Assembly: GCA_026417135.1 (NCBI GenBank)
Contig: JAOADV010000004.1
Span: forward strand, 814-64,813
DNA length: 64,000 bases
Origin: Ignavibacteria bacterium
GTDB lineage: Bacteria; Bacteroidota; Ignavibacteria; Kapaibacteriales; UBA2268
Reading direction: 5' to 3'
Shown: piece by piece, positions 5,494 to 61,758 of the stretch
How the letters are laid out: every line of letters starts with the position of its first letter
How positions within the stretch are numbered: the stretch's first letter is position 1
Position numbers and translations under genes: made by a program
The notes under the pieces: model-generated
What the model was told of the DNA's origin: nothing
The model's input: only the letters and a program-made list of their open reading frames with translations
The model's database searches: none

Positions 5494-5502
5494 ATCAATT
5501 CT

Positions 5503-6129
5503 ATGGTAAGAATAGCCGATGTTATCAAACTCGATAAAAAGTTGGTTTTGGCATCAAGTTCTGCACGAAGGAAAAAATTACTTGAAATGTTAGGTTTTGA
5601 GTTCGAAGTCATTTCGCCCGACATTGATGAACAACAAATAAGTAACGAAATTTACGATTTTTCGTTGAAAGTTATCGAGGTTGCTAAGGCAAAAGCTTTA
5701 AAGGTTTCCCAATTAATCAATTACGAATCTATTATCCTATCTGCCGATACTATTGTAGTCCTTGATGGTATGGTTTTAACAAAGCCAGTCGATGAATACG
5801 AAGCTAAAATTATGTTAAAAAAATTGAGCAATCGTACTCATCTTGTTTTTACTGGTTTGGCTTTGCTTCACACTCCTTCTTTTACCTATAAAACTTGCTT
5901 TCGTCGGACCGAAGTTTCTTTTCGTCAGATTGAGGAACAAGAAATAGATGCATACATTCTTTCCGGTTCACCTTTGGACAAAGCTGGAGCGTATGGCATC
6001 CAAGATGATTTCGGTGCTGTCTTCGTAAAGAGTGTCAATGGTTGCTTTTACAATATTGTGGGTTTGCCAATCGAAGCTTTTTATAGTTCATTGAAGCAAT
6101 TTATTAATGAATTGGAAAACAAAAGATAA
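5503..6129 (+). CDS. maf: Maf-like nucleoside triphosphate pyrophosphatase (septum formation protein)
   Basis: 208 aa. LVLASSSARRKKLLEMLG and the AGAYGIQD motif are present. Confidence 0.85.
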   Translation: MVRIADVIKLDKKLVLASSSARRKKLLEMLGFEFEVISPDIDEQQISNEIYDFSLKVIEVAKAKALKVSQLINYESIILSADTIVVLDGMVLTKPVDEYEAKIMLKKLSNRTHLVFTGLALLHTPSFTYKTCFRRTEVSFRQIEEQEIDAYILSGSPLDKAGAYGIQDDFGAVFVKSVNGCFYNIVGLPIEAFYSSLKQFINELENKR

Positions 6130-12500: not shown

Positions 12501-13082
12501 GTATTTGGCTCTTCGGGCGACAAGGACCGCTCCTTCGTTACCATAAACGTCGTAGAGGAGGCCAGCATTATAATCTGTTCCAGCACGAGGAGCAAGTAGG
12601 AAAGTATCTAAACCTTTATTCAACCACCATTTGCTATTTGTGAAATTTCGCACAAGAACATTTTCGTAGTCGAAAAGAGTTATAGCTGCTTCCCATCGAT
12701 TACTATCTGCTGGTAATGATTTGATTGCATTGCGGGCAGCTTGTCGAACAACGTCCATCTTTGTCTTTCCGGGAATGGTACTTGGCTCCGCCATTGAATA
12801 TGAAATATCGATAGTCAAAATCAACGAGAATTTTGTTTGACCGATAGGTGGGCAACCTACACCTTGTATTGCACGCGTGATTGTATTTTCGAGAACTTGG
12901 AAATCGCTCGATGTGAATGTTCTAACTTCTTTGCCTTCGTTATCGAAGACCTTGAACTCAACCATTATAGTTGGGTAATTCTCCGGAAAAATTTCGAATA
13001 CTTCTAATTTTTGAGATTTAGCACAGAAAACGAGAAGAATGAAAAATAAAGTGAAGACAACCGGGAAAATTCTTTTATTCAT
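9522..13082 (-). CDS. large secreted vWA-domain protein with a type IX secretion system C-terminal sorting domain
   Basis: 1186 aa with a signal peptide. The vWA domain has an intact MIDAS motif (DISYSM ... VIFLTDGEHNG). A long run of beta-rich, Ig-like repeats follows. The C-terminal ~80 aa (…PEGIYFVTAESQTSFTSVKFIWLK) matches the Por_Secre_tail / T9SS CTD pattern. Confidence 0.7.
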   Translation of the reverse strand: MNKRIFPVVFTLFFILLVFCAKSQKLEVFEIFPENYPTIMVEFKVFDNEGKEVRTFTSSDFQVLENTITRAIQGVGCPPIGQTKFSLILTIDISYSMAEPSTIPGKTKMDVVRQAARNAIKSLPADSNRWEAAITLFDYENVLVRNFTNSKWWLNKGLDTFLLAPRAGTDYNAGLLYDVYGNEGAVLVARRAKYKPVVIFLTDGEHNGRQNPPPSRTSVWVSQILDSARKYNVTIYAITLGFPVPPELSAICGGTPHGEAFKSVPSEEELNNLYSSILTTIGTLGPPAPCRLRFISDCSGGLGNIVYKPSNLADSFSYKVPSRFLPAIHSNDKTIYVLNRPYNQPFEKTINIVAKNNFVNVNSPGVTSQFNNVEVTDWGGTPPPFKLEKDSSRTIKIKFTPHNDSLYHTDKFNLTTSACDGNEFVINSGWVYPLDVDCGSGVVGQTKTLQQKILFCNNWYEPLTIYSVRISGGDQGDFRLLGGTTNLYLAPFSCLEMNVAFTPSDPSFRQSTLYFDTQKGRFESKIFGSGSGFPEISTYNSISFPNLDCKKRFYDTAIVIKNTGALELEITNFQITGPNATDFSFIPSNPGTVKIAPESQYVLNLRVNASTKGNISANLVITSNAKNHPTLSIPLTCFVADRTFSSNLSNLDFGVICPNEVKKMNLTIQNTGNVQITLNLSLPSPFTVPSSSITLAPNASETLEIALQSPTEGTFTSNLSISDDYCNEQKRVSLTGNVHSPKIDKAPITIFGIVGNTKDTSIILRNTSNRALTITSANFSDKQLTILGPALPWNLSAGGTLKIDIRYLPEKSGGLNAFLKLTGEPCNFLDSILFTSNPIASRAELFIDEHKGLVGEIINIPILVRNPVNLEQSGTTRVRTRINYDQNILKFVGTNPNVIVTLGTNSLLLDNIPFSPTTRTLIVISFEVLNSATLSTTLDINSSGSIDGFVYFTEVDGKFTILPSSAEIVVAEVSANTGEEFILPLYLKMPNNVTDFHQSISTEIRFNYTLMEPIGDTPKGIVKDGETKILLTGLPIKPIASDSAIAKLKFRAKLGNNTTTDIIIENTKTAKGLVNFKETKGKFTLLNVCSSGGLRLFEPGLNPFYSVIINANEQKVYLKFYPYELGNHKFRIYNVYGIQFAEFSIDIKEAREYKIDLPFEQIPEGIYFVTAESQTSFTSVKFIWLK

Positions 13083-17065: not shown

Positions 17066-17761
17066 TCATTTGTTGTAAAAAAAGAGGTTTTTATCGATTT
17101 CACTGTTTATATTTATGCTTACAATTTGTACGATTGTTTTTTTTGAGTTGTTTGCAATAATTTCCAAAGTTCTTGGGACTGCGAACCCTTTGTATTGAAA
17201 AAAGTTGCGAGGAATAATTTTAAAGGTAAATGGAGATTGATAAAAACTAACAAGTTTATAAATATCCAACTCGTTTTTCTTACTTAAAAAGTAAGTTGTC
17301 GTATCGTTAGTTAGGTTAACTATGGAAAACGAGTGGTATTCAACGTCTTCTTTTTGATTATCGAGAATTTTAAGTTGTTCGAAAATATTATTGTCGAAGA
17401 AAGAGAAAAGTGAGAGGATATTCGACTTTGTTCTTACGACTTCCTCTGGATGCAAGTCGGTGGGTTGGTATATGTTCCGGGTTGGGTCCACAATCCATCC
17501 AATTGTTCCTTTTACAACTGTTATAGCATAAATATTGTCGAAACGAACTTGAAGTCTTAAGGTATCGGGTAGCAATCGGTGAAGTACAAATTCCAAGGAG
17601 TCGTTGTTTTCGTTTATAATTACCCCGATTATTTGATAATTCTTCAAGGAATTTAATGCCGAAGGTTTAGCGAGGAAATTCTTATAACTTTCGAAAAGCG
17701 TATTGTTTATTTGTGCATTAGTTATCAGAACAGATATAAGAAATGCAAATAAAATTTTCAT
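17066..17761 (-). CDS. hypothetical exported protein
   Basis: 231 aa with an N-terminal signal peptide (MKILFAFLISVLITNAQ). No recognisable catalytic motif. Confidence 0.4.
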   Translation of the reverse strand: MKILFAFLISVLITNAQINNTLFESYKNFLAKPSALNSLKNYQIIGVIINENNDSLEFVLHRLLPDTLRLQVRFDNIYAITVVKGTIGWIVDPTRNIYQPTDLHPEEVVRTKSNILSLFSFFDNNIFEQLKILDNQKEDVEYHSFSIVNLTNDTTTYFLSKKNELDIYKLVSFYQSPFTFKIIPRNFFQYKGFAVPRTLEIIANNSKKTIVQIVSININSEIDKNLFFYNK

Positions 17762-29123: not shown

Positions 29124-29398
29124 CTTTTACAAAAAAATAAACAAATTAAGTAAACGAAAAGGTATTAAAAAAGTTGCAAAAGAAATAGAACGATAAAGTT
29201 CAAGAACTTGTTTCGAGAAAATTTTGAACCCATTTCAAAATTTCTTGTTATTCAAAGTAAATTAAAAGCAAGTTATTTGTAATTGTTCAATAACTTTTTT
29301 GGTCGAAAACTTTCTTTGTTAGAATACCTTTGATTTATAAAGCAAACTTGTGTTTTACAAAAATTCTTAATTTTGCTTTTTTTTATTCGGACTTTAGA

Positions 29399-30658
29399 AT
29401 GAGTAAAACCCCATTAGAAAGGTTCATTTCTTATGCTAAAATTAATACTCAATCGAGTGAAAATAATTCCAACGAGACTCCAAGCACTCGCTCTCAATTT
29501 GATTTAGCGAATCTTTTGGTTGAAGAATTAAAAGAGATCGGAATCGACGACGCCGAAGTTGACGAGCATTGCTACGTTATGGCGACTATTCCTTCGAACT
29601 TGTCCACAACTGAATTTGATGGTGTGGACGTTCCCTACATTGGGTTTTTAGCCCATCTGGACACATCGCCCGAAGTTTCTGGTGAAGGTGTAAACCCGCA
29701 AATAATAGAAAATTACGATGGTGGGGACATTGTTTTGCCCAAGGACCCTAATGTTGTCATCCGTTTGTCGGAAAACCCTCTTCTTAGCAAATGTATTGGT
29801 CATACGATAGTAACCAGTGATGGCACGACTTTGCTTGGGGCTGACAACAAAGCGGGGATAGCAGCAATTATGTCTATGGCTGAATACTTGCAAACCCACC
29901 CAGACATTCCGCATGGAACGATACGTATATGCTTTACTCCCGACGAGGAAATCGGGAATGGAACTAAATACCTCGATTTAGACAAATTCAATGTGAAATA
30001 TGCCTATACCGTTGACGGCGATTTGCCGGGCGAGTTAAACAAGGAAACTTTTAGTGCCGACCAAGCAACAATAACGATAATTGGTAGGGACATTCATCCC
30101 GGGACTGCTAAAGGTATTATGGTTAACTCTATTAGAATTCTTGCTGATATTATAGCTCGATTACCGAAAGACATAGCTCCAGAAACGACTGAGGGCTACC
30201 AACCTTATATACATCCGTATATTGTAGAAGGTGGTGTTGGTAAATCAACGTTAAAGCTCCTGTTGCGTGATTTTCGAACTCCCGGTTTGGATGAGTTGAA
30301 AAAAATACTCGAAAAAATTGTTGAAGATGTAAAAAAGATTTATCCAAAGTCTGAAATTACGATTGAAACAAAGTTTCAATACCGAAATATGCACGATGAA
30401 CTTGAAAAGCACCCAGAAGTTTTAGAAAATATGTGGGAGGCAGTGATTCGAAGCGGAATTGAGCCATATTGGAAGCCAATTCGAGGTGGTACCGATGGTG
30501 CTCGGCTGACTGAAAAAGGAATTCCTACTCCGAATATTTTCACTGGTGGAACAAACTTCCATAGTAAAACCGAATGGTTATCTGTAAATTATTTAAATAA
30601 AACCGTTGAAACTTTGGTGAATCTTGTACAAGTTTGGGTCGAAAAATCTCGGAAATAA
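29399..30658 (+). CDS. pepT: peptidase T (tripeptide aminopeptidase, M20B)
   Basis: MSKTPLERFISYAKINTQS…AHLDTSPE…DNKAGIAAI…TPDEEIGNG are M20/PepT motifs. The start was chosen at the internal ATG (29399), not the ORF-track start at 29330. Confidence 0.85.
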   Translation: MSKTPLERFISYAKINTQSSENNSNETPSTRSQFDLANLLVEELKEIGIDDAEVDEHCYVMATIPSNLSTTEFDGVDVPYIGFLAHLDTSPEVSGEGVNPQIIENYDGGDIVLPKDPNVVIRLSENPLLSKCIGHTIVTSDGTTLLGADNKAGIAAIMSMAEYLQTHPDIPHGTIRICFTPDEEIGNGTKYLDLDKFNVKYAYTVDGDLPGELNKETFSADQATITIIGRDIHPGTAKGIMVNSIRILADIIARLPKDIAPETTEGYQPYIHPYIVEGGVGKSTLKLLLRDFRTPGLDELKKILEKIVEDVKKIYPKSEITIETKFQYRNMHDELEKHPEVLENMWEAVIRSGIEPYWKPIRGGTDGARLTEKGIPTPNIFTGGTNFHSKTEWLSVNYLNKTVETLVNLVQVWVEKSRK

Positions 30659-30669
30659 AAGGAGACAAC

Positions 30670-32769
30670 ATGGCAAACGACCATTATCAATCGAGTTCCA
30701 GTATTCATCTTCCAGAGAATGCCCGAAGGGAACTTAAGCCGGGCGAGGTTTACAGGCCAATCCTTCAACCGGAATATCGATTCCCCGAGGTAACGCCTTA
30801 TTCGTTTTTTTTAGGATTGTTGATGGCTGTAATTTTTTCTGCCGCTGCTGCATACTCTGGTTTAAAAATTGGACAAGTTATGGAAGCTGCCATTCCAATT
30901 TCTATAATCGCTGTTGGAATAGCCGCAGCTGCAAATAAGAGCAAGGCTCTTGGACAAAATGTAATTGTTCAATCGATTGGTGCTTCTTCGGGTGTGATTG
31001 TGGCTGGTGCAGTTTTTACTATTCCAGCACTTTACATATTGAAACTGGATGCCTCGTTTTTTCAGATTTTCTTTGCTGCTGCTCTTGGAGGTTTCCTTGG
31101 AATTCTTTTTTTAATCCCATTTCGTAAATACTTTGTCAAAGAAATGCATGGCAAATTCCCTTTTCCCGAAGCAACAGCTATTACAGAAATCCTTGTGACA
31201 GGTGAAAAGGGTGGCAAAAGTGCTGGGGTTCTGGTTACAAGCGGTTTAATAGCCGGAATATACGATTTCCTTTTTTCTGCATTCCATTTTTGGAAAGAAA
31301 CTTTCACTTCGAGAGTTTTGCCTTTCGGAGAAGTTTTGGCTGATAAAGCTAAGATTCTTTTCCAATTGAATGTAAGTGCGATGATTTTTGGGTTTGGTTA
31401 TTTGATTGGGTTAAAGTATGCTTTAGTAATAACAATTGGGTCTTTCCTATCTTGGTTTGTTCTAGTTCCATTAATTAATCAAATTGGCTCTATTGTTGCG
31501 GGTGGAGGGGACAATTTGTTTGCCTCAATGCAGCCCGAACAGATTTTTTCTTTATATGTTCGACCCATTGGTATTGGAGCCATAGCGATGGCTGGAATTA
31601 TAGGAGTTATCAAATCCTCGAAAGTTATTTTGTCGGCGTTTTCACTTGCTTTTGGTGGATTTCTAAAAGGTAAGCCTAAACAAGTTTCATCAGATGACAA
31701 TCTTCGTACTCAGAAGGACATTCCGATGAATACTCTATTGATTTTGCTTGCTTTTACCATAATTGCTATCTTTATTTTCTTCCTTTTTGGTGTAAATATT
31801 ACTCCATTGCAAGCTATAGTAGCTTTATTAACAGTTATTATTATTTCTTTCTTATTTACCTCTGTTGCTGCAAATGCTATTGCTATTGTTGGTACCAACC
31901 CAGTTTCTGGTATGACTTTGATGACCTTGATATTGTCCTCTTTCATACTAACCCAAGTTGGGCTAAGCGGAAGCGAAGGTATGGTTAGTGCTCTAATAAT
32001 TGGTGGTGTTGTTTGTACTGCTTTGGCGATGGCTGGGGGATTCATTACAGATTTAAAAGTTGGATATTGGATTGGTTCGACCCCATTGAAACAAGAAAGT
32101 TTCAAATTCATTGGTGCTATTGTTTCCGCAGCAACTGTTGGTCTGGTTATTTTTATTCTCCAAGCATCTTATGGATTTACAAAGGAAGATTATGTAAGAA
32201 ATCAAAATAAGTTTACCTACGAAGAACTTTTACAAATCGAAAATAAAACTGCATCGAAAGAATTAATGGAACGTTACCAAAATGAACTTAATAAGGCAGA
32301 ACCTTTGGTCGCTCCACAAGCAAATGCAATGGCAGCAGTTATTCAACCTTTAATGTCCCCCGAAGCAAAGGTCGATTGGATGCTCTATCTCGTCGGTGCT
32401 TTTATCGCTCTATTTGTGAATTGGTTAGGGATTTCGCCACTTGCGTTTGCATTGGGGATGTATATACCTTTGCCCCTAAATACTCCATTGTTGGTTGGTG
32501 GACTAATAGCTCATTATGTTGAGAAAACAAAAGATGAGAAATTACGAAGTGCTCGTGCTCAAAGAGGAACTTTAATTGCTTCTGGGTTCATTGCTGGAGC
32601 CTCACTTTTTGGAGTAATCGCCGCTTTATTATTATTCTTCAAAGTTAGATTGTACGATATTGTTGGAAATTGGAAAATAAGTACCGAAGCTGAATATTTA
32701 AGTTTAATTATGTTTGCTTTATTAGTTGTTTATTTTATTTGGGATACATTGAAAGCACGACCCGAATAA
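30670..32769 (+). CDS. OPT-family oligopeptide transporter
   Basis: ~700 aa with 14-16 predicted TM helices. The Gly-rich OPT-like helices are present. The start was chosen at MANDHYQ (30670), not the ORF-track start at 30634. Confidence 0.75.
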   Translation: MANDHYQSSSSIHLPENARRELKPGEVYRPILQPEYRFPEVTPYSFFLGLLMAVIFSAAAAYSGLKIGQVMEAAIPISIIAVGIAAAANKSKALGQNVIVQSIGASSGVIVAGAVFTIPALYILKLDASFFQIFFAAALGGFLGILFLIPFRKYFVKEMHGKFPFPEATAITEILVTGEKGGKSAGVLVTSGLIAGIYDFLFSAFHFWKETFTSRVLPFGEVLADKAKILFQLNVSAMIFGFGYLIGLKYALVITIGSFLSWFVLVPLINQIGSIVAGGGDNLFASMQPEQIFSLYVRPIGIGAIAMAGIIGVIKSSKVILSAFSLAFGGFLKGKPKQVSSDDNLRTQKDIPMNTLLILLAFTIIAIFIFFLFGVNITPLQAIVALLTVIIISFLFTSVAANAIAIVGTNPVSGMTLMTLILSSFILTQVGLSGSEGMVSALIIGGVVCTALAMAGGFITDLKVGYWIGSTPLKQESFKFIGAIVSAATVGLVIFILQASYGFTKEDYVRNQNKFTYEELLQIENKTASKELMERYQNELNKAEPLVAPQANAMAAVIQPLMSPEAKVDWMLYLVGAFIALFVNWLGISPLAFALGMYIPLPLNTPLLVGGLIAHYVEKTKDEKLRSARAQRGTLIASGFIAGASLFGVIAALLLFFKVRLYDIVGNWKISTEAEYLSLIMFALLVVYFIWDTLKARPE

Positions 32770-35832: not shown

Positions 35833-36545
35833 AATTTGCTTTCCTTATACTCTTAGTTTCTGCTTTTTTTTCCTGCGAAAAACAAACGCATAAGGAGGTT
35901 AACCAAACTGTTCGTCCCAGTATTGAAGGAAAAGTTGAAGAAAAATTCCCAATTAGCAGATTAAAATTCGACATACAATTAAATCCAGATTCTATTAAGA
36001 TAACTCATTATGCGACAATTTGGACAAGTTTTGGACCTTTCAAGTTAGCCCTTTATGGTAAGGACGCACCGCTGACTGTTAAAAATTTTGTCTCGCTTGC
36101 TCGTAGTGGATACTTCAATAATACTTTAATTCATAGAATTGCAAAAAATTTCTTGATACAAATGGGTGACGGGACAACAAAATTTAAATCCAAAAAGGAC
36201 GAGTGGGGTAAAGGAGGGAAAAGTATTTACGGTGGGTTTTTCCCCGATGAAATAAAAGCCAACTCCTACATTTACAATGTTGGCTATACTTATGGAACTG
36301 TTGCAATGGCAAATAGTGGACCAAATAAGAATCTGAGCCAATTTTTTATTTGTTTGGAAGAGGCTGAATTTCTTGAAAAGAAATACACAATATTCGGTAA
36401 AGTCGTCGAAGGAATAGAAGTTATCGAAACTATTGCAGGGCAAGAGATTATACCCTACAAATTCGATAGTCTGGATGGAACTCCCAAAAAACCAATAAAA
36501 ATATTTAAAGTAACGATAGCAAAGAACACTAATTCAAAACGTTAG
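35826..36545 (+). CDS. cyclophilin-type peptidyl-prolyl cis-trans isomerase, lipoprotein
   Basis: Lipobox SAFFSCEKQ. Cyclophilin core FGPFKLALYGKDAPLTVKNFVSLARSGYFNNTLIHRIAKNFLIQMGD…ANSGPNKNLSQFFI. Confidence 0.9.
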   Translation: MLKFAFLILLVSAFFSCEKQTHKEVNQTVRPSIEGKVEEKFPISRLKFDIQLNPDSIKITHYATIWTSFGPFKLALYGKDAPLTVKNFVSLARSGYFNNTLIHRIAKNFLIQMGDGTTKFKSKKDEWGKGGKSIYGGFFPDEIKANSYIYNVGYTYGTVAMANSGPNKNLSQFFICLEEAEFLEKKYTIFGKVVEGIEVIETIAGQEIIPYKFDSLDGTPKKPIKIFKVTIAKNTNSKR

Positions 36546-37398
36546 CCAAATTCAACTCGATAATCATTCCATCGAATAAATTACTTTTTCCAATTCTTTT
36601 TGTGTACTCTAAGTGTTCGGATGGCGTTTCAGAGGTATCGGACAATTTGAAATCGATTTCACCGACAGCCAAAACTTTATCCACTTCGATTGCTTTCCCT
36701 TGGAATTCACCACCAATAACGATACACGTTTTTTTAACTTTTGTTTGAAGTAATAGCTCGGCTTTATCGAAAAGGTCCACCATAAGTTTCAAGTCGTTAT
36801 TTTTAGTTTCCTCGATGACTTTCATTGCAAGGTCAAATTCTTGTCGCGATTTTAATTCTTCTACTTTTATTCCAATTTTGTGTATCTTCGAGTGTGGTTC
36901 TTCGAACTCTTTCAAAAGTGTTTGAAAAAAGTAGTTATCAGTTTGGTAAGAATAATACCATTGCCCAAATTTACATTTTGTGGGGTCTGTTGTTAGAGTA
37001 AATGGTCTTCTTTCAATTGTAGATTTAATTAATTCATCTATCCAGTTAATATGGTCTTGTTTACGTTCTTTTAAGGTAGATATCAATTGGAGATTTTCCT
37101 CTTCAAGCGACGGCAAGTTGAACTTTTTTCTTAAACTAATAACCGTGATTATTACACCTCTTAAAGTAAACATACCCAGAATTTGGGGGGGCTGACCTGG
37201 TAAAACGGTAAGTTCCGGCATTTTTATTATTCCGTTAACCAAGTGCACTGGGATACAATATTTGTTCTTTCCTAATTGAAATAGAACAAACTTTTCGTTG
37301 GTATTTTTAGATTTTTGCTTCTCTTTGGTGTGGGAAAAATCGTAGTTCATTTTTCGTTCCTTTACTAAAAAAGCAAAAATAATAGAAAAGTTTCGCAT
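36529..37398 (-). CDS. CheW-like coupling protein with an inserted CZB (chemoreceptor zinc-binding) domain
   Basis: The N-terminal CheW half KFVLFQLGKNKYCIPVHLV…TLRGVIITVISLRKKF aligns with E. coli CheW residues ~18-75. The C-terminal CheW half KTCIVIGGEFQGKAIEVDKVLAVGEIDFKL…DGMIIELNLANVLN is also present. Between them lies a ~125 aa insert carrying the full CZB signature: DHINW, 25 aa, CKFGQW, 21 aa, HSKIH. Confidence 0.65.
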   Translation of the reverse strand: MRNFSIIFAFLVKERKMNYDFSHTKEKQKSKNTNEKFVLFQLGKNKYCIPVHLVNGIIKMPELTVLPGQPPQILGMFTLRGVIITVISLRKKFNLPSLEEENLQLISTLKERKQDHINWIDELIKSTIERRPFTLTTDPTKCKFGQWYYSYQTDNYFFQTLLKEFEEPHSKIHKIGIKVEELKSRQEFDLAMKVIEETKNNDLKLMVDLFDKAELLLQTKVKKTCIVIGGEFQGKAIEVDKVLAVGEIDFKLSDTSETPSEHLEYTKRIGKSNLFDGMIIELNLANVLN

Positions 37399-51864: not shown

Positions 51865-52335
51865 ATGATAAGCGAACAGCGTAAAATCAAATATGTTTTG
51901 AAGAATAAGAAAGCACTCCACGATTATGAAGTTTTGCAAAAATTCGAGGCTGGAATTGAATTAAAAGGAACAGAAGTAAAATCGATAAGACAAGGAAGGT
52001 GTAACATACAAGACTCATATTGTACTTTTCTTAATCCCAAATCCGACGAGCTCTTTTTAGTAAATTTTAATATTAGTCCTTATGAACAAGCAAGTCATTT
52101 TAACCACGAACCGAGGAGGCCCAGAAAACTACTTCTTCATAAGAATGAATTGCAAAGGCTTAAAGTTGCTCTTGAACAAAAAGGGTTGACCTTGGTCCCG
52201 TTGTCAGTTTATTTTTCCGGTCCTTTCGTGAAGTTCGAAATTGCATTGGTTCGTGGAAAAAAGAAGTACGATAAAAGAGAAAATTTAAGGAAACGAGAAG
52301 TTGAAAAAGAAATAAGTAAAAGGATGAAAGTATGA
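51865..52335 (+). CDS. smpB: SsrA-binding protein
   Basis: NKKALHDYEVLQKFEAGIELKGTEVKSIRQG is the canonical SmpB N-terminal region. It overlaps tyrS by ATGA. Confidence 0.9.
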   Translation: MISEQRKIKYVLKNKKALHDYEVLQKFEAGIELKGTEVKSIRQGRCNIQDSYCTFLNPKSDELFLVNFNISPYEQASHFNHEPRRPRKLLLHKNELQRLKVALEQKGLTLVPLSVYFSGPFVKFEIALVRGKKKYDKRENLRKREVEKEISKRMKV

Positions 52336-53576
52336 GTAATGAAATAAAATTTCCACCAGTTTACGAGCAATTAGAAGTAATTAAATCTTTTGCTGTTGAA
52401 GTTTTCCCCGAAGAGGAGCTTGTTCAGAAATTAGAGAAGTCGTATAAAACGAAGCGACCTTTAAATGTGAAATTAGGTTGCGACCCAAGTAAGCCAGATT
52501 TACATTTGGGGCATTCGGTGGTGCTTCGCAAACTTCGTCAATTTCAAGATTTAGGGCACAAAGCCATTCTTATAGTCGGCGATTTCACTGCTATGATTGG
52601 GGACCCTTCGGGACGAAGTAAAACTCGCCCGCCTTTGACAATGGAAGAAACGAGAATTAATGGCAAAACCTATCTCGAACAAGCGACAAAGATTCTTTCG
52701 AAGGAAAATTTGGAAATTCGTTTCAATTCGGAGTGGCTTGGAAATATGCATTTCTCGGATGTAATTAGTCTGGCATCCAAATATACTGTGGCTCAAATAT
52801 TAGAACGAGATGATTTTTCGCAAAGGTTCCAAAAAGGATTTCCAATAAGCATTCACGAATTGTTGTATCCACTCGCCCAAGCAATGGATTCTGTTGCTAT
52901 TCATTCAGATGTTGAACTTGGAGGAACCGACCAAAAGTTTAATCTTATCGTCGGGCGTGAGATTCAAAAAGCATATGAACAAGAACCTCAATGCATAGTT
53001 CTTATGCCTATCCTCGAAGGTATCGATGGGAACGAAAAGATGAGCAAGTCTCTTGGAAATTACATTGCCCTAACGGATTCGCCAAGAGATATGTTTGGAA
53101 AAATTATGTCAATCCCAGATGAATTGATTGTGAAATATTTCAAATTGGGGGTTTTTCCCGAAGAAAATGAATTAGAAAACTTCGAAGAAAGTTTAAAAAG
53201 TGGCAAGCTTCATCCAAGAGTTGCCAAAGCTGAAGTAGCTAAAAGAGTTGTCGAGTTTTATTATGGTCGTGAAATTGCTGAAAAGTCTTCCGAAGAGTTC
53301 GATAAAATTTTCGCGAAAAAAGAAATTCCCGATGACATTGAATTAGTAGTTTTAGATAAAAATAAAATAACTTTGCCAATAGTGGATGTTCTTTACGAAA
53401 CTGGTTTGTCAGCTTCGAAGAAAGAAGCGCGAAGAATGATAGAGCAAGGCGGAGTTTACTTGGATGGGGTACGAGTTTCTGATATTAATGCAGAAGCCGA
53501 CTTTTCGGTTAGAAAATTAATTAAATATGGAAAACGAAAATTCCTTTTTATCGAAGTTAATACATTAAATAAGTAG
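52332..53576 (+). CDS. tyrS: tyrosine--tRNA ligase
   Basis: HLGH (HIGH motif) and KMSKS are present. The C-terminal S4-like domain has GGVYLDGVRV. Confidence 0.9.
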   Translation: MSNEIKFPPVYEQLEVIKSFAVEVFPEEELVQKLEKSYKTKRPLNVKLGCDPSKPDLHLGHSVVLRKLRQFQDLGHKAILIVGDFTAMIGDPSGRSKTRPPLTMEETRINGKTYLEQATKILSKENLEIRFNSEWLGNMHFSDVISLASKYTVAQILERDDFSQRFQKGFPISIHELLYPLAQAMDSVAIHSDVELGGTDQKFNLIVGREIQKAYEQEPQCIVLMPILEGIDGNEKMSKSLGNYIALTDSPRDMFGKIMSIPDELIVKYFKLGVFPEENELENFEESLKSGKLHPRVAKAEVAKRVVEFYYGREIAEKSSEEFDKIFAKKEIPDDIELVVLDKNKITLPIVDVLYETGLSASKKEARRMIEQGGVYLDGVRVSDINAEADFSVRKLIKYGKRKFLFIEVNTLNK

Positions 53577-53583
53577 TTGAAAA

Positions 53584-55467
53584 GTGGAAACAATAGTTGA
53601 ATTTATTAAAAAAGTTGAAATATTCAAAGACTTGGATGTCGAAGAACTTGCTGCTTTGCTTAAGCGTTTGGAAATAATTACTTACGATGAAAATGAATAT
53701 TTGTTTATGGAAAATTCCCCACGAAGGGGAATGTATATTGTTTGGGAAGGTAAAGTTGAATTATATAAAAATTCACCTTTTGGCGAACCGAAGAAGTTAA
53801 CATCTTTCAGCAAATACGATTTCCTTTCCGAAGGTGCTTTGCTCGACGATTATCCTCATTCAACTAATGCCATTGCGAAGGAACCAACCAAAATGGTGTT
53901 TTTGAGTAAAACTAATTTCGATAGTTTCATTAGAGAATCCCCCGAAGTTGCATCTAAAATCATTTCTCAGATTAGCAGAGTTATTTCCCGAAGAATGCGA
54001 CAAGCTGCGAATCAAGTTGTGAATGCGGCTGCGCAATATATTTCCGGAAGAGTAAGAATCGAAAAGGATTTACTTGGCGAAAGAGAAGTTCCATACGAAT
54101 TTTACTATGGAATTCAAACATTGCGTGCCTTGGAAAATTTTCCAATTACTGGAATACCAATTAGTCATTTTCCCGATTTAATTGTTGCCTTGGCGCAAGT
54201 TAAATATGCTTGTGCGTTAGCTAATTACCATTTAGGTTTTCTTCCAGAAAACATTAAGAACGCTATTGTTCAAGCTTGTCAAGAAATTATTGATGGACGT
54301 TTTCATATTTACTTCGTTGTGGATATGATTCAGGGCGGAGCTGGCACTTCGACAAATATGAATGCTAACGAAGTCATTGCAAATCGGGCGCTCGAAATTT
54401 TGGGTTACGAGCGAGGGCAATACCAGTACTGTCATCCAAACAATCACGTTAATTTATCGCAATCCACAAACGACGTTTATCCGACTGCATTAAAGATTGC
54501 ATTCATCAATTTAGGGCGTAAATTGGAGTCGGTTTTACAAGATTTAATCGATTCTTTTCACGCAAAAGCTTTGCAGTTTTCCAATATTATCAAGATTGGG
54601 CGGACTCAATTGCAAGACGCAGTGCCAATGACTCTTGGTCAGGAGTTCGAAGCATTTGCTGTTACTCTGGAGCAAGAGAAGGAGCGCATAAATCATAATA
54701 TGGAGCTTTTATTCGAGATAAATCTTGGGGGGACTGCTATTGGAACTGGTATCAACACACATCCTCGTTACAGAAATTTGGCACTCGAGTATTTGCGAGA
54801 AATTACTGGGCTTCCGTTGAAGCTTGCCGAAAATCTTGTCGAAGCAACACAAGATACTGGAGCATTTGTTTTATTCTCTTCGTCGATAAAGGCTCTTGCT
54901 ATTAAACTTTCCAAAATAGCAAACGATTTGCGGCTTTTGAGTTCTGGACCGAGAGCTGGATTGAACGAGATTAATTTACCAAAGATGCAACCCGGTTCGT
55001 CGATTATGCCCGGGAAAGTAAACCCCGTGATACCGGAAGTTGTAAATCAAGTTGCTTTTAAAGTTATTGGAAATGATTTAACTGTTACCCTTGCTGCAGA
55101 AGCTGGGCAATTACAATTAAATGTTTTCGAACCAGTAATAGCACAAAGTATTTTTGAATCTATCGAAATGTTGATAAGTGGAATTGTAACCTTTAACGAA
55201 AAATGTGTCAAAGGGATTACTGCAAATGAAAAACAATGTCGCGCTTATGTTGAAAAATCGCTTGGGATTGTTACTGCATTAAATGAATATCTTGGTTACG
55301 AGGTAACATCTCAGCTTGCAAAGGAATCTTTGGAAACTGGTAAAGGCATTTACGAATTGGTTTTAGAAAAAAAACTTCTCGAAAAGGATAAGTTGGACGA
55401 AATACTCAATCTTGAAAATATGATTCGCCCAAGTCTTAAATCGGATGTTTCGAAGCATAGGGAATAA
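53584..55467 (+). CDS. aspA: aspartate ammonia-lyase fused to an N-terminal cyclic-nucleotide-binding-like (CAP effector) domain
   Basis: GTG start. Residues 1-~150 have a CAP_ED-like beta-roll (VEIFKDLDVEELAALL…YLFMENSPRRGMYIVWEGKVELYK…FLSEGALLD). Residues ~160-627 are a class II fumarase/aspartase with GGAGTSTNMNANEVIANRALE (AspA-like) and the lyase signature GSSIMPGKVNPVIPE. Confidence 0.8.
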   Translation: METIVEFIKKVEIFKDLDVEELAALLKRLEIITYDENEYLFMENSPRRGMYIVWEGKVELYKNSPFGEPKKLTSFSKYDFLSEGALLDDYPHSTNAIAKEPTKMVFLSKTNFDSFIRESPEVASKIISQISRVISRRMRQAANQVVNAAAQYISGRVRIEKDLLGEREVPYEFYYGIQTLRALENFPITGIPISHFPDLIVALAQVKYACALANYHLGFLPENIKNAIVQACQEIIDGRFHIYFVVDMIQGGAGTSTNMNANEVIANRALEILGYERGQYQYCHPNNHVNLSQSTNDVYPTALKIAFINLGRKLESVLQDLIDSFHAKALQFSNIIKIGRTQLQDAVPMTLGQEFEAFAVTLEQEKERINHNMELLFEINLGGTAIGTGINTHPRYRNLALEYLREITGLPLKLAENLVEATQDTGAFVLFSSSIKALAIKLSKIANDLRLLSSGPRAGLNEINLPKMQPGSSIMPGKVNPVIPEVVNQVAFKVIGNDLTVTLAAEAGQLQLNVFEPVIAQSIFESIEMLISGIVTFNEKCVKGITANEKQCRAYVEKSLGIVTALNEYLGYEVTSQLAKESLETGKGIYELVLEKKLLEKDKLDEILNLENMIRPSLKSDVSKHRE

Positions 55468-56368: not shown

Positions 56369-56472
56369 TTTTGTGATTTTTAAAAAAATGATAAGAAGTT
56401 TAAAAAAAAGTTTTATTTATTTTGATTTTTGTAGGAAAATTATTTAATTTTGGCTGGGGTAAAAGGGGGGAG

Positions 56473-57231
56473 ATGATAAAAATTTTAACTTTTTTTTCTC
56501 CGAGTAGTTTTTTTCAATTGAATTTACCGCACGATGCAATTTTTGTTGGTGTCGATATTTTGCGGGCGGGGACAACACTTTGTACTGCTTTAGCAAACAA
56601 AGCAAAGGAAGTTGTTCCAGTTGTAAGCTCAGAAGTTGCACTGAGGTTGTATAATCGATTCGACAGAGATAATGTTTTGCTTTGCGGCGAAAGAAATGGA
56701 CAAAAGATAGAAGGATATGCTCTTGGAAATTCTCCATTAGAGTTCACTTCGGAAAAGGTAAATAATAAAACCTTGATTTTAGATACAACAAATGGAAGCA
56801 AAATTTTCGCAAACGGATTGGATTTTCGCTATGCGTTGGTTGGGGCTTTTATTAACTTCACTTCTATATTCAATGTTATAAGCAAAATTATATCTTCGAA
56901 AAATGCGAATATGATTCTTCTTGTTTGTGCGGGGGACAAAGGTGGCTTTTCTTTCGAAGATGCTCTTTTTTGTGGTAGTTTAGCAAAAAAAATTGCAGAA
57001 TCCAGCAATAAATTTGTTTTAGATGATGCAACGAGGGCCTCGATTGACTTATTTGAACTACATAAACCGAATTTATGTGAATTTGTTAAATCCACCTCTC
57101 ACGCGAAAAATTTAATTGCCCTTGGATACGAGGAAGATATTAATTATGCTTTAACAACGGACCTTTTCGCTGTTGTTCCAATTTCTAACGGTGTTTCCTA
57201 CATCAGCTATAGGCCGAAGGATGGCGAGTGA
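56473..57231 (+). CDS. 2-phosphosulfolactate phosphatase (ComB) family protein
   Basis: VGVDILRAGTTLCTAL…LLCGERNGQKIEGYALGNSPLEF…LDTTNGSKIF are ComB-family motifs. The start was chosen at MIKILTFF (56473), which follows AAAAGGGGGG, not the ORF-track start at 56422. Confidence 0.7.
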   Translation: MIKILTFFSPSSFFQLNLPHDAIFVGVDILRAGTTLCTALANKAKEVVPVVSSEVALRLYNRFDRDNVLLCGERNGQKIEGYALGNSPLEFTSEKVNNKTLILDTTNGSKIFANGLDFRYALVGAFINFTSIFNVISKIISSKNANMILLVCAGDKGGFSFEDALFCGSLAKKIAESSNKFVLDDATRASIDLFELHKPNLCEFVKSTSHAKNLIALGYEEDINYALTTDLFAVVPISNGVSYISYRPKDGE

Positions 57232-59815
57232 AAAGGATAAGGTAGAAATTCAATATAGAAGAAAGAGAAAGAGCTCTTTCCAAGAACCACAAACTCAAAA
57301 TGATTCTGCGGAAGAGCTTCGCAAACAAATAGAAGAAAAATATTTTAATCGATTGAAGATTATTTCAATTTTAGTTTTGATTTTTTCATTCTTTGCTGTT
57401 TTATCAATTTTATCTTACTCTCCAAAAGATGAGTTCATTTATTCCTTTTCTTTTAAGGATGTTCTGGGTTTAATAACTGGCGATGAATCGGCTATTCAAA
57501 AAGCGAAATCCGTGTCTAATTTACTAGGTCCTTTTGGTGCGGTTGTGGCAAATTTTTTTATCAAAGCTACTATTGGTTACTTTTCTGTAATTTTCCCTAT
57601 TCTTGCAATTCTTTGGTCGTTAAAGATTATTCTTACTAAGTCGTTCAGTGGACCTTTGGCAAAAAGGACACTCTTTGCGGTCATTGGTTTGGTAGCAGTT
57701 GCCTCATTTTTAGAAAGCTTAAACTTGCTTTTTGCTTTGAAAATTCCTTATTTCTGGATTGGTTCTTTGGGTTATTCTATTTCTAATGTTTTATCGAACA
57801 TCTTTGGTAATCTTGGAGCTCTTTTAATACCAATTTTTACCATATTTTTTGCTATCATATTTACCATTGAAGTAAAGATAGAAAATTTTTTTCTTGCTTG
57901 CAACGATGGATTAAAAAAAATTCTTGGAAAGTTAAGGGAACTGAGGGTCAAGAGACAAAACGAAAATATCGAGAAAGAGACTCAAGCGAAAGGAAATTTA
58001 AGTGAATCAATTCCAGCATTGGATGAAGATATCGAAACTGGCCGCATATTAATCCAAAATATTAGCAAGAATGAAAATGGAAGTGAGTTCATAGACAAGC
58101 CTGATTCGACTAATTCTATTATTCGAAAAGACTTTTCAAGCGAAAATTTAGAAAAAGAAAACTACATTGCACCATTGGTGGAAAGAGAAAATCGTTCCGA
58201 CGATATTGAACAAGACTTGGAAAGTAATGAGAATGATAGGAAGCTTGTAGTAATAGTCGAACAAGAAGAAGAAGATGTCGTCGATGGGAAAAAATCAGCT
58301 TTTAGCCCTTTGTCGACTATTACCCTTGATGAAAAAATAAATTACACACCACCACCAATTGATTTACTTATCGACGATGAAAGCAAGTTTCAAATAAACG
58401 AGGAGGAGTTAAAACAAAATGCTCGAACCTTACAAGAAAAGCTCGAAACTTTTAAAATTTACATCGAAAATTTAACGGTAACTCCCGGACCCGTGGTTAC
58501 GTTATTTGAATTTGTTCCAGCACCAGGAATTAAAATTAGTCGAATTCAAAGTCTTGCCGATGATATTGCTTTAGGATTGAAAGCAAAGGGAATAAGAATT
58601 ATCGCACCTGTGCCCGGTAAAGGGACGGTCGGAATAGAAATGCCAAACAGAAAGCCATTGGTTGTTAGATTTGGAAATTGTTTGAAAAATGCGCGAATAC
58701 CTCCTAACTTTAAGTTACCGATAATTCTCGGGAAAACAATTTCGGGCGAAGTGTATGTGGACGACCTTACAAAGATGCCCCACCTTTTGATTGCAGGGGC
58801 CACAGGCTCTGGCAAAAGTGTTGGCATAAATACAATTATCGTATCCTTGATATATAAAATGTCGCCGCAAAATTTGAAGTTTGTTATCATCGACCCCAAA
58901 AAGGTTGAACTTTCGCAGTATCAACAACTTTTGTATCATTACCTTGCAGTTTCTACTGAAATCGAGGATGCGATTATTACTGAACCACACGATGCTGTGC
59001 ATATTCTTAAATCTCTTGTGGCGGAAATGCAAATAAGATATGATATTCTTGCATCAGTTAATCAAAAGAACATCGCGGAATATAATAAAAAGGTCAAGGA
59101 TGGTGTTTTCAAAAATGAGACCGAATTCGAGCATCGACCTTTACCGTACATAATTGTAGTAATTGATGAATTAGCCGATTTGATGCTAACGGCTGGAAAA
59201 GAAATTGAAACTTTGATAATACGACTTGCGCAGCTTGCTCGAGCAGTTGGAATACATTTGGTTGTAGCAACTCAAAGACCTTCGGTTGATATCATTACTG
59301 GGTTGATAAAAGCAAATTTCCCGGCAAGGATTGCTTACCTTGTTGCTTCGCGGGTGGATTCGCGAACTATAATAGATACAATTGGTGCGGAACAACTTCT
59401 TGGTAGTGGCGATATGCTTTTTCTTCCTAATGGAAGTCCCACTCCGATTAGATTACAAAATGCATTTCTGACTACCGAAGAAATCGAAAGAATTTGCGAT
59501 TACATCGGCAACCAGAAAGGTTTTTCTAAGCCTTACTATTTGCCAGCAATTGACGATGGAAAAGGTGCAAAGGAGCTGGTTCGTGAAGGTTTCGACCCAC
59601 TTTTTGCCGAAGCTGCTAGGCTAATCGTTCGATATCAGCAAGCTTCCGTTTCGATGTTACAAAGACGGCTTAAAGTTGGCTACAATCGTGCTGGTCGGAT
59701 TATGGATGAGTTGGAAATCGCTGGTATTGTTGGTCCATTCGATGGAAGCAAAGGTCGAACAATTAAAATTAAAACAGAAGAAGAGTTAAACGATATGCTA
59801 AGTAAGTTCGAGTAA
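57221..59815 (+). CDS. ftsK: DNA translocase FtsK/SpoIIIE
   Basis: N-terminal 4-5 TM helices, a long acidic/low-complexity linker, and the motor domain with Walker A LLIAGATGSGKSVGIN. The C-terminal gamma winged-helix domain follows. Start chosen at MASEKDK (57221), overlapping the ComB-like stop by 11 nt; the ORF-track start is 57173. Confidence 0.9.
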   Translation: MASEKDKVEIQYRRKRKSSFQEPQTQNDSAEELRKQIEEKYFNRLKIISILVLIFSFFAVLSILSYSPKDEFIYSFSFKDVLGLITGDESAIQKAKSVSNLLGPFGAVVANFFIKATIGYFSVIFPILAILWSLKIILTKSFSGPLAKRTLFAVIGLVAVASFLESLNLLFALKIPYFWIGSLGYSISNVLSNIFGNLGALLIPIFTIFFAIIFTIEVKIENFFLACNDGLKKILGKLRELRVKRQNENIEKETQAKGNLSESIPALDEDIETGRILIQNISKNENGSEFIDKPDSTNSIIRKDFSSENLEKENYIAPLVERENRSDDIEQDLESNENDRKLVVIVEQEEEDVVDGKKSAFSPLSTITLDEKINYTPPPIDLLIDDESKFQINEEELKQNARTLQEKLETFKIYIENLTVTPGPVVTLFEFVPAPGIKISRIQSLADDIALGLKAKGIRIIAPVPGKGTVGIEMPNRKPLVVRFGNCLKNARIPPNFKLPIILGKTISGEVYVDDLTKMPHLLIAGATGSGKSVGINTIIVSLIYKMSPQNLKFVIIDPKKVELSQYQQLLYHYLAVSTEIEDAIITEPHDAVHILKSLVAEMQIRYDILASVNQKNIAEYNKKVKDGVFKNETEFEHRPLPYIIVVIDELADLMLTAGKEIETLIIRLAQLARAVGIHLVVATQRPSVDIITGLIKANFPARIAYLVASRVDSRTIIDTIGAEQLLGSGDMLFLPNGSPTPIRLQNAFLTTEEIERICDYIGNQKGFSKPYYLPAIDDGKGAKELVREGFDPLFAEAARLIVRYQQASVSMLQRRLKVGYNRAGRIMDELEIAGIVGPFDGSKGRTIKIKTEEELNDMLSKFE

Positions 59816-59879: not shown

Positions 59880-60848
59880 TTACCTAAATTTAACAAATTG
59901 GAGCAGATTTCTCCAAATAATAGGATATTTACCACCAAGAGGACCAATTTTCTTCCAATCGCCAAGAACTTCTAACTCTCTTAAAATTCTTAAAATGTCT
60001 GTTATATCTCTTTCAACATTGGTAGTTTGACTTGCGAGTTTCTCTTTCAAAATTTTATCACATAGAACCTTCTTAAGGCTTTTAATATTTTCGAAATAGT
60101 TGTAGTCATCGTTAATTTCTTGAATAATTCCAACAATGTCGATATAGTTCCCTTGGATGAGAAATATTTTTCGGATAAATTCTTTAATCTTATCATCATC
60201 TTTTTCTGCAATTTCTAAGAACTCTTTGCCCAGTTCAGAAATTTCGTAGGAATTTAAATCGAAGAGCTTTAAATCTCGTAATAATAATTTGATATTGATT
60301 AAGTTAGATTTTTTTGCTGATTTCCATTTTCTAATTTTGGTAATTGTATGCCAAATTGTTTCATCAATATATTCTTTTTTGGGTGAATTTTGAAGAGCTT
60401 GGTAAATGTTTTTTAAAATAATATAGATTTCCTTATATTTTAAATCTCTGTAGTAAGCATAACCTCTTTGAATTTTTTCTGTAGTTATTAATAGCTCGGC
60501 TTGTGGTTTTGGTTCTCGATGTATTGAAACTCTGTTAGGTTCAACACAAATTATTCAAATGAAATTTGTCCATAACCATTTTTCCATTAATTCTAGTTCT
60601 TTTCTGGGTAAGGCTAAGTAAGATTTATCTGAATGCCTACAAAAAGCAATAGCTTGTCCCAATCCAGTCAAGTACTCTCTTCGATTAAGGTTGCTTGCCT
60701 TACATTCGATTTGAGCCAAAGTGCCATTTAAGTATTTAACTTGAATGTCGGGCATAGGGAAGTGATAAGCGAATCTTGTTACAATTTCGACATCGGACTT
60801 TTGTTTGAACCAATTAGAAACTAATTGCACAACCTCGTTATGTGTCAT
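59880..60848 (-). pseudogene. putative Type II restriction endonuclease (PD-(D/E)xK fold) interrupted by an in-frame TGA at 60555-60557
   Basis: A 97-aa ORF (60555-60848) contains the PD…ExK motif FPMPDIQVKYLNGTLAQIECKAS. The same frame continues past a single TGA for another 224 sense codons down to a TAA at 59880-59882. That downstream segment has no ATG, GTG or TTG near its 5' end, which is why it is absent from the ORF track. Sampled lines are ~25% GC against ~40% for the neighbours. Confidence 0.5.
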
Positions 60849-61758
60849 TTTGGTTTTTTAAAAATTAGAACATAGTCGTGGTTACAGATAAAATAATTAA
60901 ACCTTAGGGAGCGATATTTATTCAAGTTGATTTTGCCTTGCCGTGAACTTGCAAAACGAGTAATCTTGATGACTTTTGAATAATATTCAAAACCGACCTT
61001 TAAACCAACTTGCGTTGCGTAAAAATCTAATGGTATTGTTTTACCTCCTTTTTTAAAGTCCTCGCCAATTAAAACACAGAAAAATTTTCCTTTTTTAAGA
61101 ACTGTGAAAACTCCGATGAAAACTTTCTCTAACCCTTCGAGAAAACCATCAAGTGTTTTTTCGTTGGAAAGGTCTCCATCGACGAAGCCATATTCTTCAC
61201 CATATTTGACAAGTTCCCAATATGGTGGATGTGCAAAACAAAAATCAAAACTTTCTTTTTCTAAACCAAGTTCGAGCAGTTTTGTTGAGTTCCCAAGAAT
61301 AACTCGTTGTTGTTTAAGCCAAAAAAGTAATGAATCATCGTCAAATCCCAATGTTTCTTGTTGCAAATTTAATTTAGCAACTTCGAGTATTTTAGGGTTA
61401 ATTTCGACACCGACACCTCTTCGTTTCACTGTGCAGCAACTATCAAAGTGGTTCCCGAACCACAAAATGGGTCCAAAATCAAATCGCCTTCTTTCGAAAA
61501 GCGAAGCAGACATTGGCGTGGTATTTCAATTGGGGAATTGCCGTGGACGGTATATTTAGTCCAATTGTATGGGTCGCGTTCTGGGGTATCCCATATTGTA
61601 AAAAATTGAATGTCTAAGTTTTGTTCGTATTCTTTCCATTTTGTAGGGTCTAAGTCGTTTACTTCGCCATTTTCCGTTTTTTTCGATATTGCGTTTGGTT
61701 TTAAAAGTTTATATTTACTTAGGTTAAATAATTCGTCCATAACTTTTGCAAAATACAA
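60845..61758 (-). pseudogene. N6A/N4C-type DNA amino-methyltransferase disrupted by a -1 frameshift near 61426-61432
   Basis: The 110-aa ORF ends …HGNSPIEIPRQCLLRFSKEGDLILDPFCGSGTTLIVAAQ* (motifs X and I). The overlapping 222-aa ORF in the -1 frame continues …KRRGVGVEINPKILEVAKLNL (motifs II-III), then ILGNSTKLLELGLEKESFDFCFAHPPYW (motif IV), then …NHDYVLIFKK. Restoring one nucleotide after the CAG (Gln) codon joins them into AAQ-x-KRRGVGVEIN. Its stop overlaps the nuclease gene start as ATGA. Confidence 0.6.

Follow-up and report, generated by a model that had tools for sequence, protein, structure and literature searches.

Why should the gene for an aspartate ammonia-lyase, an enzyme of central metabolism, begin with a sensor domain of the kind found in the cAMP receptor protein (CRP)? 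The question is raised by a locus of an Ignavibacteria bacterium (GenBank assembly GCA_026417135.1, contig JAOADV010000004.1), in which a stretch of 64,000 nucleotides (positions 814 to 64,813 of the contig, hereafter the window) carries at 53584-55467 on its forward strand a complete and uninterrupted open reading frame (ORF) of 627 amino acids plus stop. Its product joins an N-terminal cyclic nucleotide-binding (CNB) domain to a class II aspartase, and is in effect a CRP with an aspartase in place of the DNA-binding domain. The fusion is real and is common in uncultured bacteria, where it is visible in databases yet unstudied. As argued below from its conservation and from the make-up of its ligand pocket, a small molecule probably acts as the switch of the fusion enzyme.

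The gene opens with a GTG codon (53584-53586, + strand) that directly follows an in-frame TGA (53578-80) and lies 7 nucleotides past the TAG stop (53574-76) of its 5' neighbour tyrS (52332-53576, +; TIGR00234, 363 bits). A preliminary description of the locus, made from the sequence alone, had set the start at this GTG 7 nucleotides after tyrS, had counted the first in-frame ATG at about residue 41, and had held that the fusion is no artefact of start-site choice. The coordinates are borne out, tyrS being identified by its NCBIfam equivalog, and the first internal methionine is, by our count, residue 42. The start is correct because seven syntenic relatives carry ATG exactly at the homologous position (ATGGAAACA vs GTGGAAACA in the window). 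Furthermore, the N-terminus is conserved from residue 1, with Met at alignment column 1 in 169 of 195 homologue N-termini. Unless stated otherwise, statistics on the N-terminal region refer to these 195 aligned family N-termini or to a set of 77 diverse members, and full-length comparisons to the best 120 full-length homologues, which represent independent 90% clusters. The window protein is identical to NCBI MCX7879712.1, named 'MAG: aspartate ammonia-lyase [Ignavibacteria bacterium]' (MAG, metagenome-assembled genome).

The N-terminal helices and an eight-stranded beta-roll occupy residues 1-119 (53584-53940, +), as delimited by PF00027, an AlphaFold2 (AF2) model and Foldseek. They are followed at residues 120-156 (53941-54051, +) by a C-helix and hinge that align with CAP in hhalign and are homologous to the dimerisation helix and hinge of CRP. 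In Pfam scans, cNMP_binding (PF00027) covers residues 33-118, its score of 59 bits (E 4.5e-16) exceeding the cut-off of 27.5, and residues 1-156 alone matched PKG, CRP and PKA chains of the PDB with E values of 1e-18 to 1e-10. The AF2 model of the N-domain, built on the 77 diverse family members, reached a pLDDT of 91.5 and a pTM of 0.82, and its DSSP assignment gives the beta-roll, the phosphate-binding cassette helix, the B-helix and the long C-helix of the CNB fold. Foldseek matched the model to CRP-family structures with probability 1.0. The best neighbours were the cAMP-bound Mycobacterium tuberculosis CRP (MtbCRP) and Corynebacterium glutamicum GlxR (TM 0.78-0.81), on which the model superposes with a root-mean-square deviation of about 2 A over about 147 columns, C-helix included. 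The hhalign comparison with E. coli CAP (probability 97.4) begins at the first helix and extends as far as the CAP hinge. The beta-roll recognised in the preliminary description is therefore seen alike by Pfam, PDB, AF2, Foldseek and hhalign, which agree on a CAP/CRP fold for residues 1-156.

Residues 157-627 (54052-55464, +) form the body of a class II aspartate ammonia-lyase, assigned by TIGR00839 (aspA) and by PDB homology. Lyase_1 was found at residues 165-496 (E 7.5e-94) and FumaraseC_C at 562-614, and HMMER thus detects both lyase families along with cNMP_binding in the same protein, with scores that chance does not explain. The sequence scores 720.3 bits against the NCBIfam aspA equivalog TIGR00839, above the cut-off of 681.2, and 481.8 bits against the fumC equivalog TIGR00979, below the cut-off of 664.75; the earlier assignment to a full AspA-type rather than FumC-type lyase is upheld on both counts. 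Matches of the lyase part in the PDB include 6wng (E 2e-184) and 1jsw (E 6e-167). The active-site regions are TSTN (255-258), SQSTND (292-297), GRTQLQDAVP (339-348) and GSSIMPGKVNP (471-481), and the first three, together with the SS-loop, are invariant or nearly so across the 120 homologues. In the catalytic SS-loop signature GSSIMPGKVNPVIPE (residues 471-485; 54994-55038, +), located by motif match, nearly every position from G471 to E485 is invariant or ≥90% conserved. The other motifs quoted earlier were likewise located, SEGALLDDYPHSTNA at residues 82-96 and GGAGTSTNMNANEVIANRALE at 251-271. Judged from these intact signatures, the fusion lyase appears to be a catalytically complete AspA.

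The two parts meet directly. S154-G155-R156 is aligned by hhalign to the CAP hinge T-G-R, and homology to solved AspA begins at query residues 154-157 (PDB); since CAP homology ends at the hinge where AspA homology begins, there is no linker. No helix-turn-helix family was found after the hinge in Pfam or NCBIfam scans, the sequence there being that of AspA. The junction is also well conserved. Mean pairwise identity among the 120 members is 48% in the beta-roll, 66% in the C-helix and hinge and 77% in AspA, and the invariant or near-invariant positions of the C-helix and hinge comprise R132, I134, R136, R137, M138, R139, Q140, Q151, Y152, S154, G155, R156 and R158. Because it is more conserved than the beta-roll, the segment that joins sensor and enzyme has the look of a transducer rather than of a passive tether.

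What, then, might the sensor bind? E. coli CAP holds cAMP via E72, R82-S83 and T127-S128 (PMC10187061). In the fusion protein the elements of interest are the phosphate-binding cassette (S82-E83-G84-A85-L86-L-D-D-Y-P91-H92-S93-T94-N95-A96; 53827-53871, +), placed by alignments to PKG and CAP, and the beta2-beta3 loop (E43-N44-S45-P46-R47; 53710-53724, +), placed by the register of the PKG alignment. By hhalign, E83 is equivalent to E72 of CAP, H92 to R82, S93 to S83 and A141-A142 to T127-S128, and HMMER, in its alignment with Plasmodium PKG, likewise sets His opposite Arg (DFLSEGALLDDYPHSTNA vs DYFGERALLYDEPRTASI). H92 is also at the position of PKA R209, and the cassette Arg that serves the cyclic phosphate is absent from the window protein. 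The Glu for the ribose 2'-OH (CAP E72, PKA E200) is kept as E83 and is found in 192 of the 195 family N-termini, and Ser at position 93 (CAP S83, a phosphate contact) in 155. His92 is present in 193, the remaining two being a gap and a non-homologous fragment, and is invariant at any divergence wherever the column is homologously covered. R47, present in 183 of the 195, occupies what we take to be the position of PKA Gly169, from the PKG register and the PKA RIalpha sequence.

The pairing of these two positions gives the replacement its meaning. In classical CNB domains the cassette Arg (PKA R209) co-evolves with, and touches, Gly169 of the beta2-beta3 loop, a co-evolution that is missing from non-canonical CNB families (PMC2246266). 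The fusion family shows a double swap, cassette Arg to His92 and Gly169 to Arg47. The preliminary description had noted His in place of the cassette Arg; the PKG and CAP alignments agree on this, and the change is family-wide rather than specific to one gene, but it is not a lone change, since the co-evolving Gly is replaced as well. With His92/Arg47 in place of the Arg209/Gly169 pair, recognition is therefore not of the classical cAMP-through-Arg kind, and because positions 169 and 209 touch, we infer that R47 and H92 may together form an anion-binding site. Of the top 150 matches of an exhaustive N-domain library search, those with both residues are all fragments from aspartase fusions. Full-length fusions were not among the representatives in that search, probably because they are clustered at 50% identity with plain AspA.

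Some large multi-CNB proteins among the same 150 matches likewise have His in place of the cassette Arg. These are proteins of 850-1080 amino acids with four CNB stretches (P0261, P0263, P0270, P0276, P0299, P0301, P0307 and P0381), which have the cassette His in one or two domains and Gly, Pro, Ala or Ser at the equivalent of position 47. Judging from these sequences, His-for-Arg is a recurring, uncharacterised CNB variant that extends beyond the aspartase fusions.

The pattern holds over a wide family. The three-domain Pfam architecture was found in all of the best 120 full-length homologues, which have lengths of 611-637 residues and share 64-80% identity with the window protein. The fusion comes from many assemblies, closed multi-Mb contigs among them, and is named 'aspartate ammonia-lyase' in databases, its fragments 'cyclic nucleotide-binding domain-containing protein'. 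The best 120 are labelled Ignavibacteria, Zixibacteria, Calditrichaeota, Bacteroidota and GN15. A search with the first 220 residues adds Kapaibacteria, Melioribacteraceae, Chloroflexota, Syntrophomonadaceae and Pirellulales, as well as the labels Deltaproteobacteria, Gemmatimonadetes, Geminicoccaceae and Clostridiales, with the qualification that not all MAG taxonomic labels of the homologues are reliable. The preliminary description had held that an allosteric domain on such a lyase would be an unusual regulation device: as a fusion the architecture stands, whereas its rarity does not, the family being large and spread over several phyla. Across the 77 diverse members, whose alignment-wide identity to the N-domain of the window protein falls to about 19%, the only invariant columns of the N-domain are G56, E83 and H92, and distant fusions with roughly 20-30% N-domain identity retain E83, H92, R47 and R137.

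Two observations concern the database records of this family. MAGs titled 'uncultured Hyphomicrobiales bacterium' (loci L005, L010, L013, L016, L019, L020 and L024) carry fusions 53-72% identical to that of the window; those of L005 and L010 (71-72%) match it no less closely than Kapaibacteria and Ignavibacteria relatives do. The Hyphomicrobiales labels of these MAGs look wrong. We also considered whether 'partial' fusions of 150-420 residues on long contigs form a class of truncated paralogues, and rejected the idea: they are frameshifted genes in long-read assemblies. At L050 (5001-6080 and 6202-6867) and L049, the fusion gene is split into two ORFs of 359 and 221 amino acids, and the neighbouring genes are fragmented too. 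Partial CNB-only proteins are therefore overcounted in databases, owing to frameshift errors in long-read metagenome assemblies.

From this body of evidence we favour, with somewhat better than even confidence, the reading that the fusion enzyme is a ligand-gated aspartase with non-canonical recognition, the ligand being left open. A small anionic ligand would bind the cassette pocket through E83, the A85 backbone, H92, S93/T94 and the neighbouring R47. Its binding would shift the C-helix and hinge, as in CRP, and the shifted hinge, which leads directly into AspA domain 1, would alter that domain and hence the activity or the assembly state of the presumably tetrameric enzyme. The likeliest ligand would be an anionic metabolite, perhaps one with a ribose (a nucleotide, cyclic or not, in an altered mode of binding), or another status signal bearing a phosphate or carboxylate. 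In peptide-degrading bacteria, metabolic control of the deamination of aspartate to fumarate and NH4+ would then be exerted directly and post-translationally. Transcription of aspA in E. coli is activated by cAMP-CRP, a parallel to the proposed gating.

A more specific proposal is that the swapped His92/Arg47 pocket confers a new CNB ligand specificity. In place of cAMP or cGMP, the ligand would be a metabolite, or a nucleotide that is not cyclic, through which the cell signals its status in carbon, nitrogen or energy, and it would gate the presumably tetrameric lyase via C-helix and hinge. We put this forward tentatively, as a possibility that falls well short of even chances. A nucleoside pocket like that of the trypanosome PKA regulatory subunit (PKAR) was rejected: it needs Glu at the A202 position of PKA, and this position stays small (Ala or Ser) in the fusion family.

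Several findings weigh against ligand gating by an altered pocket. The full-length AF2 model has low confidence at residues 142-153, so that the geometry of coupling is unsupported. Comparison of gene neighbourhoods revealed no conserved operon partner that hints at a ligand or pathway, and the 64-kb window, too small a sample to inform, holds no adenylate cyclase or second CNB protein. Finally, the window copy departs from nearly all its relatives in the nucleobase region. The TS signature for the nucleobase is absent from the window protein, which has A141-A142 instead, and the CAP T127-S128 positions across the 120 members read TT in 34, AS in 29, TS in 20, AT in 17, AN in 8, ST in 7 and AA in 2. 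T, S or N stands at the CAP S128 position in 118 of the 120, and the Ala-Ala of the window is one of two exceptions, by reason of which the window copy could differ from its relatives.

This last point leads to the strongest of the rival explanations, an ordinary receptor for cAMP (or cGMP) in which His92, aided by Arg47, replaces the cassette Arg and switching is as in CRP. Much of the pocket would suit it. Besides the residues at the S128 position, E83 and S93 are retained, the nearest structural neighbours are cAMP-bound CRPs, and the small residue at the A202 position means that the phosphate is not shut out as in trypanosome PKAR. The cassette, with family consensus G-E-G-A-L-M-D-D-Y-P-H-S-T-S-A, is otherwise near canonical (GEGALMDDYPHSTSA in the family vs GEMALLDGEPRSATVVA in bacterial CNB domains; Table 1, PMC2246266), and the R209K mutation lowers the affinity of PKA by a factor of only about ten (PMC2246266). 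We nevertheless consider this explanation unlikely. No family sequence with homologous coverage of the column is without His92, the Arg209/Gly169 pair by which cNMP-binding CNB domains are known is altered at both positions, and the window protein lacks the TS signature.

Families with a substituted cassette Arg provide a further argument against cAMP. Known cases include CooA (His, haem), CprK (Asn, chlorophenolacetate) and PDZ-GEF (Met/His) (PMC2246266), and the PKA R-subunit of trypanosomatids, where Thr/Asn at the Arg position plus A202E create a nucleoside pocket from which phosphate is excluded (PMC10959531). CooA, CprK, PDZ-GEF and trypanosome PKAR bind other ligands or are without an established cAMP response. 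The fusion family resembles CooA and PDZ-GEF in having a conserved His at the Arg209 position. It differs from all four in that its cassette is otherwise canonical (G-E-x-A-L ... P-H-S-T-x-A), its A202 position is small and it has gained a conserved beta2-beta3 Arg.

A module without any exchangeable ligand is a still less probable account of the N-terminal domain, which would then serve in structure, oligomerisation or docking, or be a pseudo-receptor that, as in KCNH channels, carries its own intrinsic ligand. Precedents for a CNB homology domain that has no ligand are PDZ-GEF and K_HCN (PMC2246266), no ligand can be named for the fusion, and the best-conserved stretch of its N-terminal region is the C-helix, which is the dimerisation element of CRP. 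Opposed to this account are the three invariant columns of the 77 diverse members. Besides G56 these are E83 and H92, both of which face the ligand pocket, and a bound ligand is therefore hard to avoid.

Could His92 hold a haem or a metal instead, so that the enzyme would respond to gas, redox state or metal? The conserved His of CooA (His77), a structural analogue of PKA Arg209, coordinates haem (PMC2246266). The His92 found throughout the fusion family is flanked by the conserved acidic D88/D89 and E83, which might provide a metal site. E. coli AspA is itself activated by divalent metal, which also counts in favour of this explanation. We regard it as improbable. The cassette is canonical in shape and not CooA-like, and the pocket is polar and acidic rather than a hydrophobic haem cradle. 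CooA was not among the top 60 of the 68 significant PDB sequence matches, and the sole haem-linked structural neighbour, DNR, ranks low in Foldseek (25 and 45).

The remaining explanation, a mis-set start or a join by assembly or gene calling of a small CNB protein and a separate aspA, could appeal to the GTG start and to the first ATG at residue 42, but it is refuted by the single unbroken ORF, by the same 611-637 residue architecture in 120 independent 90% clusters, by the ATG of the seven relatives and by the overlap in sequence of the CAP-like hinge with the AspA N-terminus.

Set beside known systems, the fusion is a hybrid of well-studied parts. It shares with the effector domains of CRP/CAP proteins (E. 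coli CAP, M. tuberculosis CRP Rv3676, C. glutamicum GlxR) the beta-roll, C-helix and hinge, and keeps the Glu and Ser of the cAMP signature; it differs from them in carrying an enzyme instead of the winged helix-turn-helix, and in its cassette His, its beta2-beta3 Arg and, in the window copy, the missing TS signature. To class II aspartases (E. coli AspA 1JSW and 6WNG, Bacillus AspB 1J3U) it is similar over their full length and collinear (E 2e-184 to 1e-157), whereas the solved or characterised aspartases among the PDB matches start at the equivalent of residue 154-157 and have no N-terminal sensor. AspA is regulated by transcription through cAMP-CRP and FNR, and Schubert et al. in 2021 reportedly described its regulation through GlnB. 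We know of no characterised aspartase with a built-in sensor domain.

CNB domains are established as switches of fused bacterial enzymes. The closest precedents in design are M. tuberculosis Rv0998, a cAMP-dependent lysine acetyltransferase (PMC8556138), and Bdellovibrio Bd1971, a cAMP-sensing EAL phosphodiesterase (PMC6717892), in which an N-terminal CNB domain is likewise fused to a catalytic domain; allosteric regulation has been shown there, and is what we infer for the fusion aspartase. Both are cAMP-responsive and have a signalling or modifying output, whereas the fusion has a presumably tetrameric lyase of central metabolism and a non-canonical cassette. Rv0998 and Bd1971 retain the canonical cassette Arg.

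The surroundings of the gene add little to the question of the ligand. NCBIfam equivalogs confirm the genes upstream of the fusion as tyrS and smpB. tyrS is probably co-transcribed with the fusion gene, and is synteny context rather than a functional partner. The order smpB-tyrS-fusion, followed by a convergent EamA transporter, a ComB-like phosphatase and ftsK, is common to eight close Kapaibacteria/Ignavibacteria relatives only, beyond which the fusion gene is monocistronic amid unrelated neighbours; with the order limited to these eight, we dropped the gene neighbourhood as a general clue. The distant fusion of locus L049 (3723-4916 (-) beside 5001-6056 (+)), which belongs to a subgroup with an H-G-T-S cassette, is divergent to Asparaginase_2 and class V aminotransferase genes, and an asparaginase beside it would give a route from Asn through Asp to fumarate. 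The remainder of the window encodes housekeeping functions together with a tripeptidase PepT and an OPT-family oligopeptide transporter, the genes of which overlap by about 25 nucleotides (29330-32769, +). The presence of PepT and OPT is consistent with a peptide-degrading lifestyle, and peptide uptake and degradation through them would feed aspartate to the fusion enzyme.

Other genes of the window deserve brief mention. In a 289-residue protein (36529-37398, -), a CheW-like domain (37-102) is followed by a chemoreceptor zinc-binding (CZB) domain (116-179); a chemotaxis adaptor and a Zn/redox-sensing module are not commonly paired in this way. A protein of 1186 residues (9522-13082, -) with VWA, ASH/HYDIN-like Ig and cohesin-like domains, which adjoins a 675-residue OmpA-family protein, probably serves at the cell surface or in adhesion. 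Two proteins, of 690 residues (7094-9166, -) and 231 residues (17066-17761, -), match no Pfam family at E <= 1e-5. At 60845-61559, the C-terminal end of a 222-residue ORF matches the N6_N4 DNA methylase profile over no more than its first half (2-108 of 221), and a 151-residue ORF on the opposite strand overlaps this ORF, which may be a methylase gene that has been truncated or frameshifted. Downstream of the fusion, the listed TTG start of the FtsK-like gene (57173-59815, +) overlaps the end of the ComB-like gene (2-phosphosulfolactate phosphatase family; 56422-57231, +) by 59 nucleotides, and the true ftsK start probably lies further downstream.

A targeted full-text literature search, with subscription journals outside its reach, found no paper on an aspartase-CNB fusion. 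The census of 30 CNB families by Kannan et al. 2007 (PMC2246266) contains no lyase family, and PDB sequence searches, with the full-length protein and with the N-domain, returned no solved structure of this architecture. The fusion is not categorically new; it is a large and experimentally easy family in which residues of cNMP recognition are rewired in a precise and conserved manner. Aspartase is both a textbook enzyme and an industrial biocatalyst, and its known regulation is transcriptional or acts via PII proteins. A large set of environmental bacteria nevertheless carry a CRP-type sensor attached directly to it, and the double swap of Arg to His and Gly to Arg provides a clean test case for a change of ligand in the CNB fold. 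If a ligand were found, it could yield a new class of CNB ligand or a ligand-switchable aspartase for biocatalysis and biosensing. If the new specificity tentatively proposed for the His92/Arg47 pocket is true, the fusion would be the first CNB-regulated enzyme of primary nitrogen and carbon metabolism, a natural 'CRP with an enzyme output' with a wide distribution over Ignavibacteria, Kapaibacteria, Zixibacteria, Calditrichaeota and further phyla.

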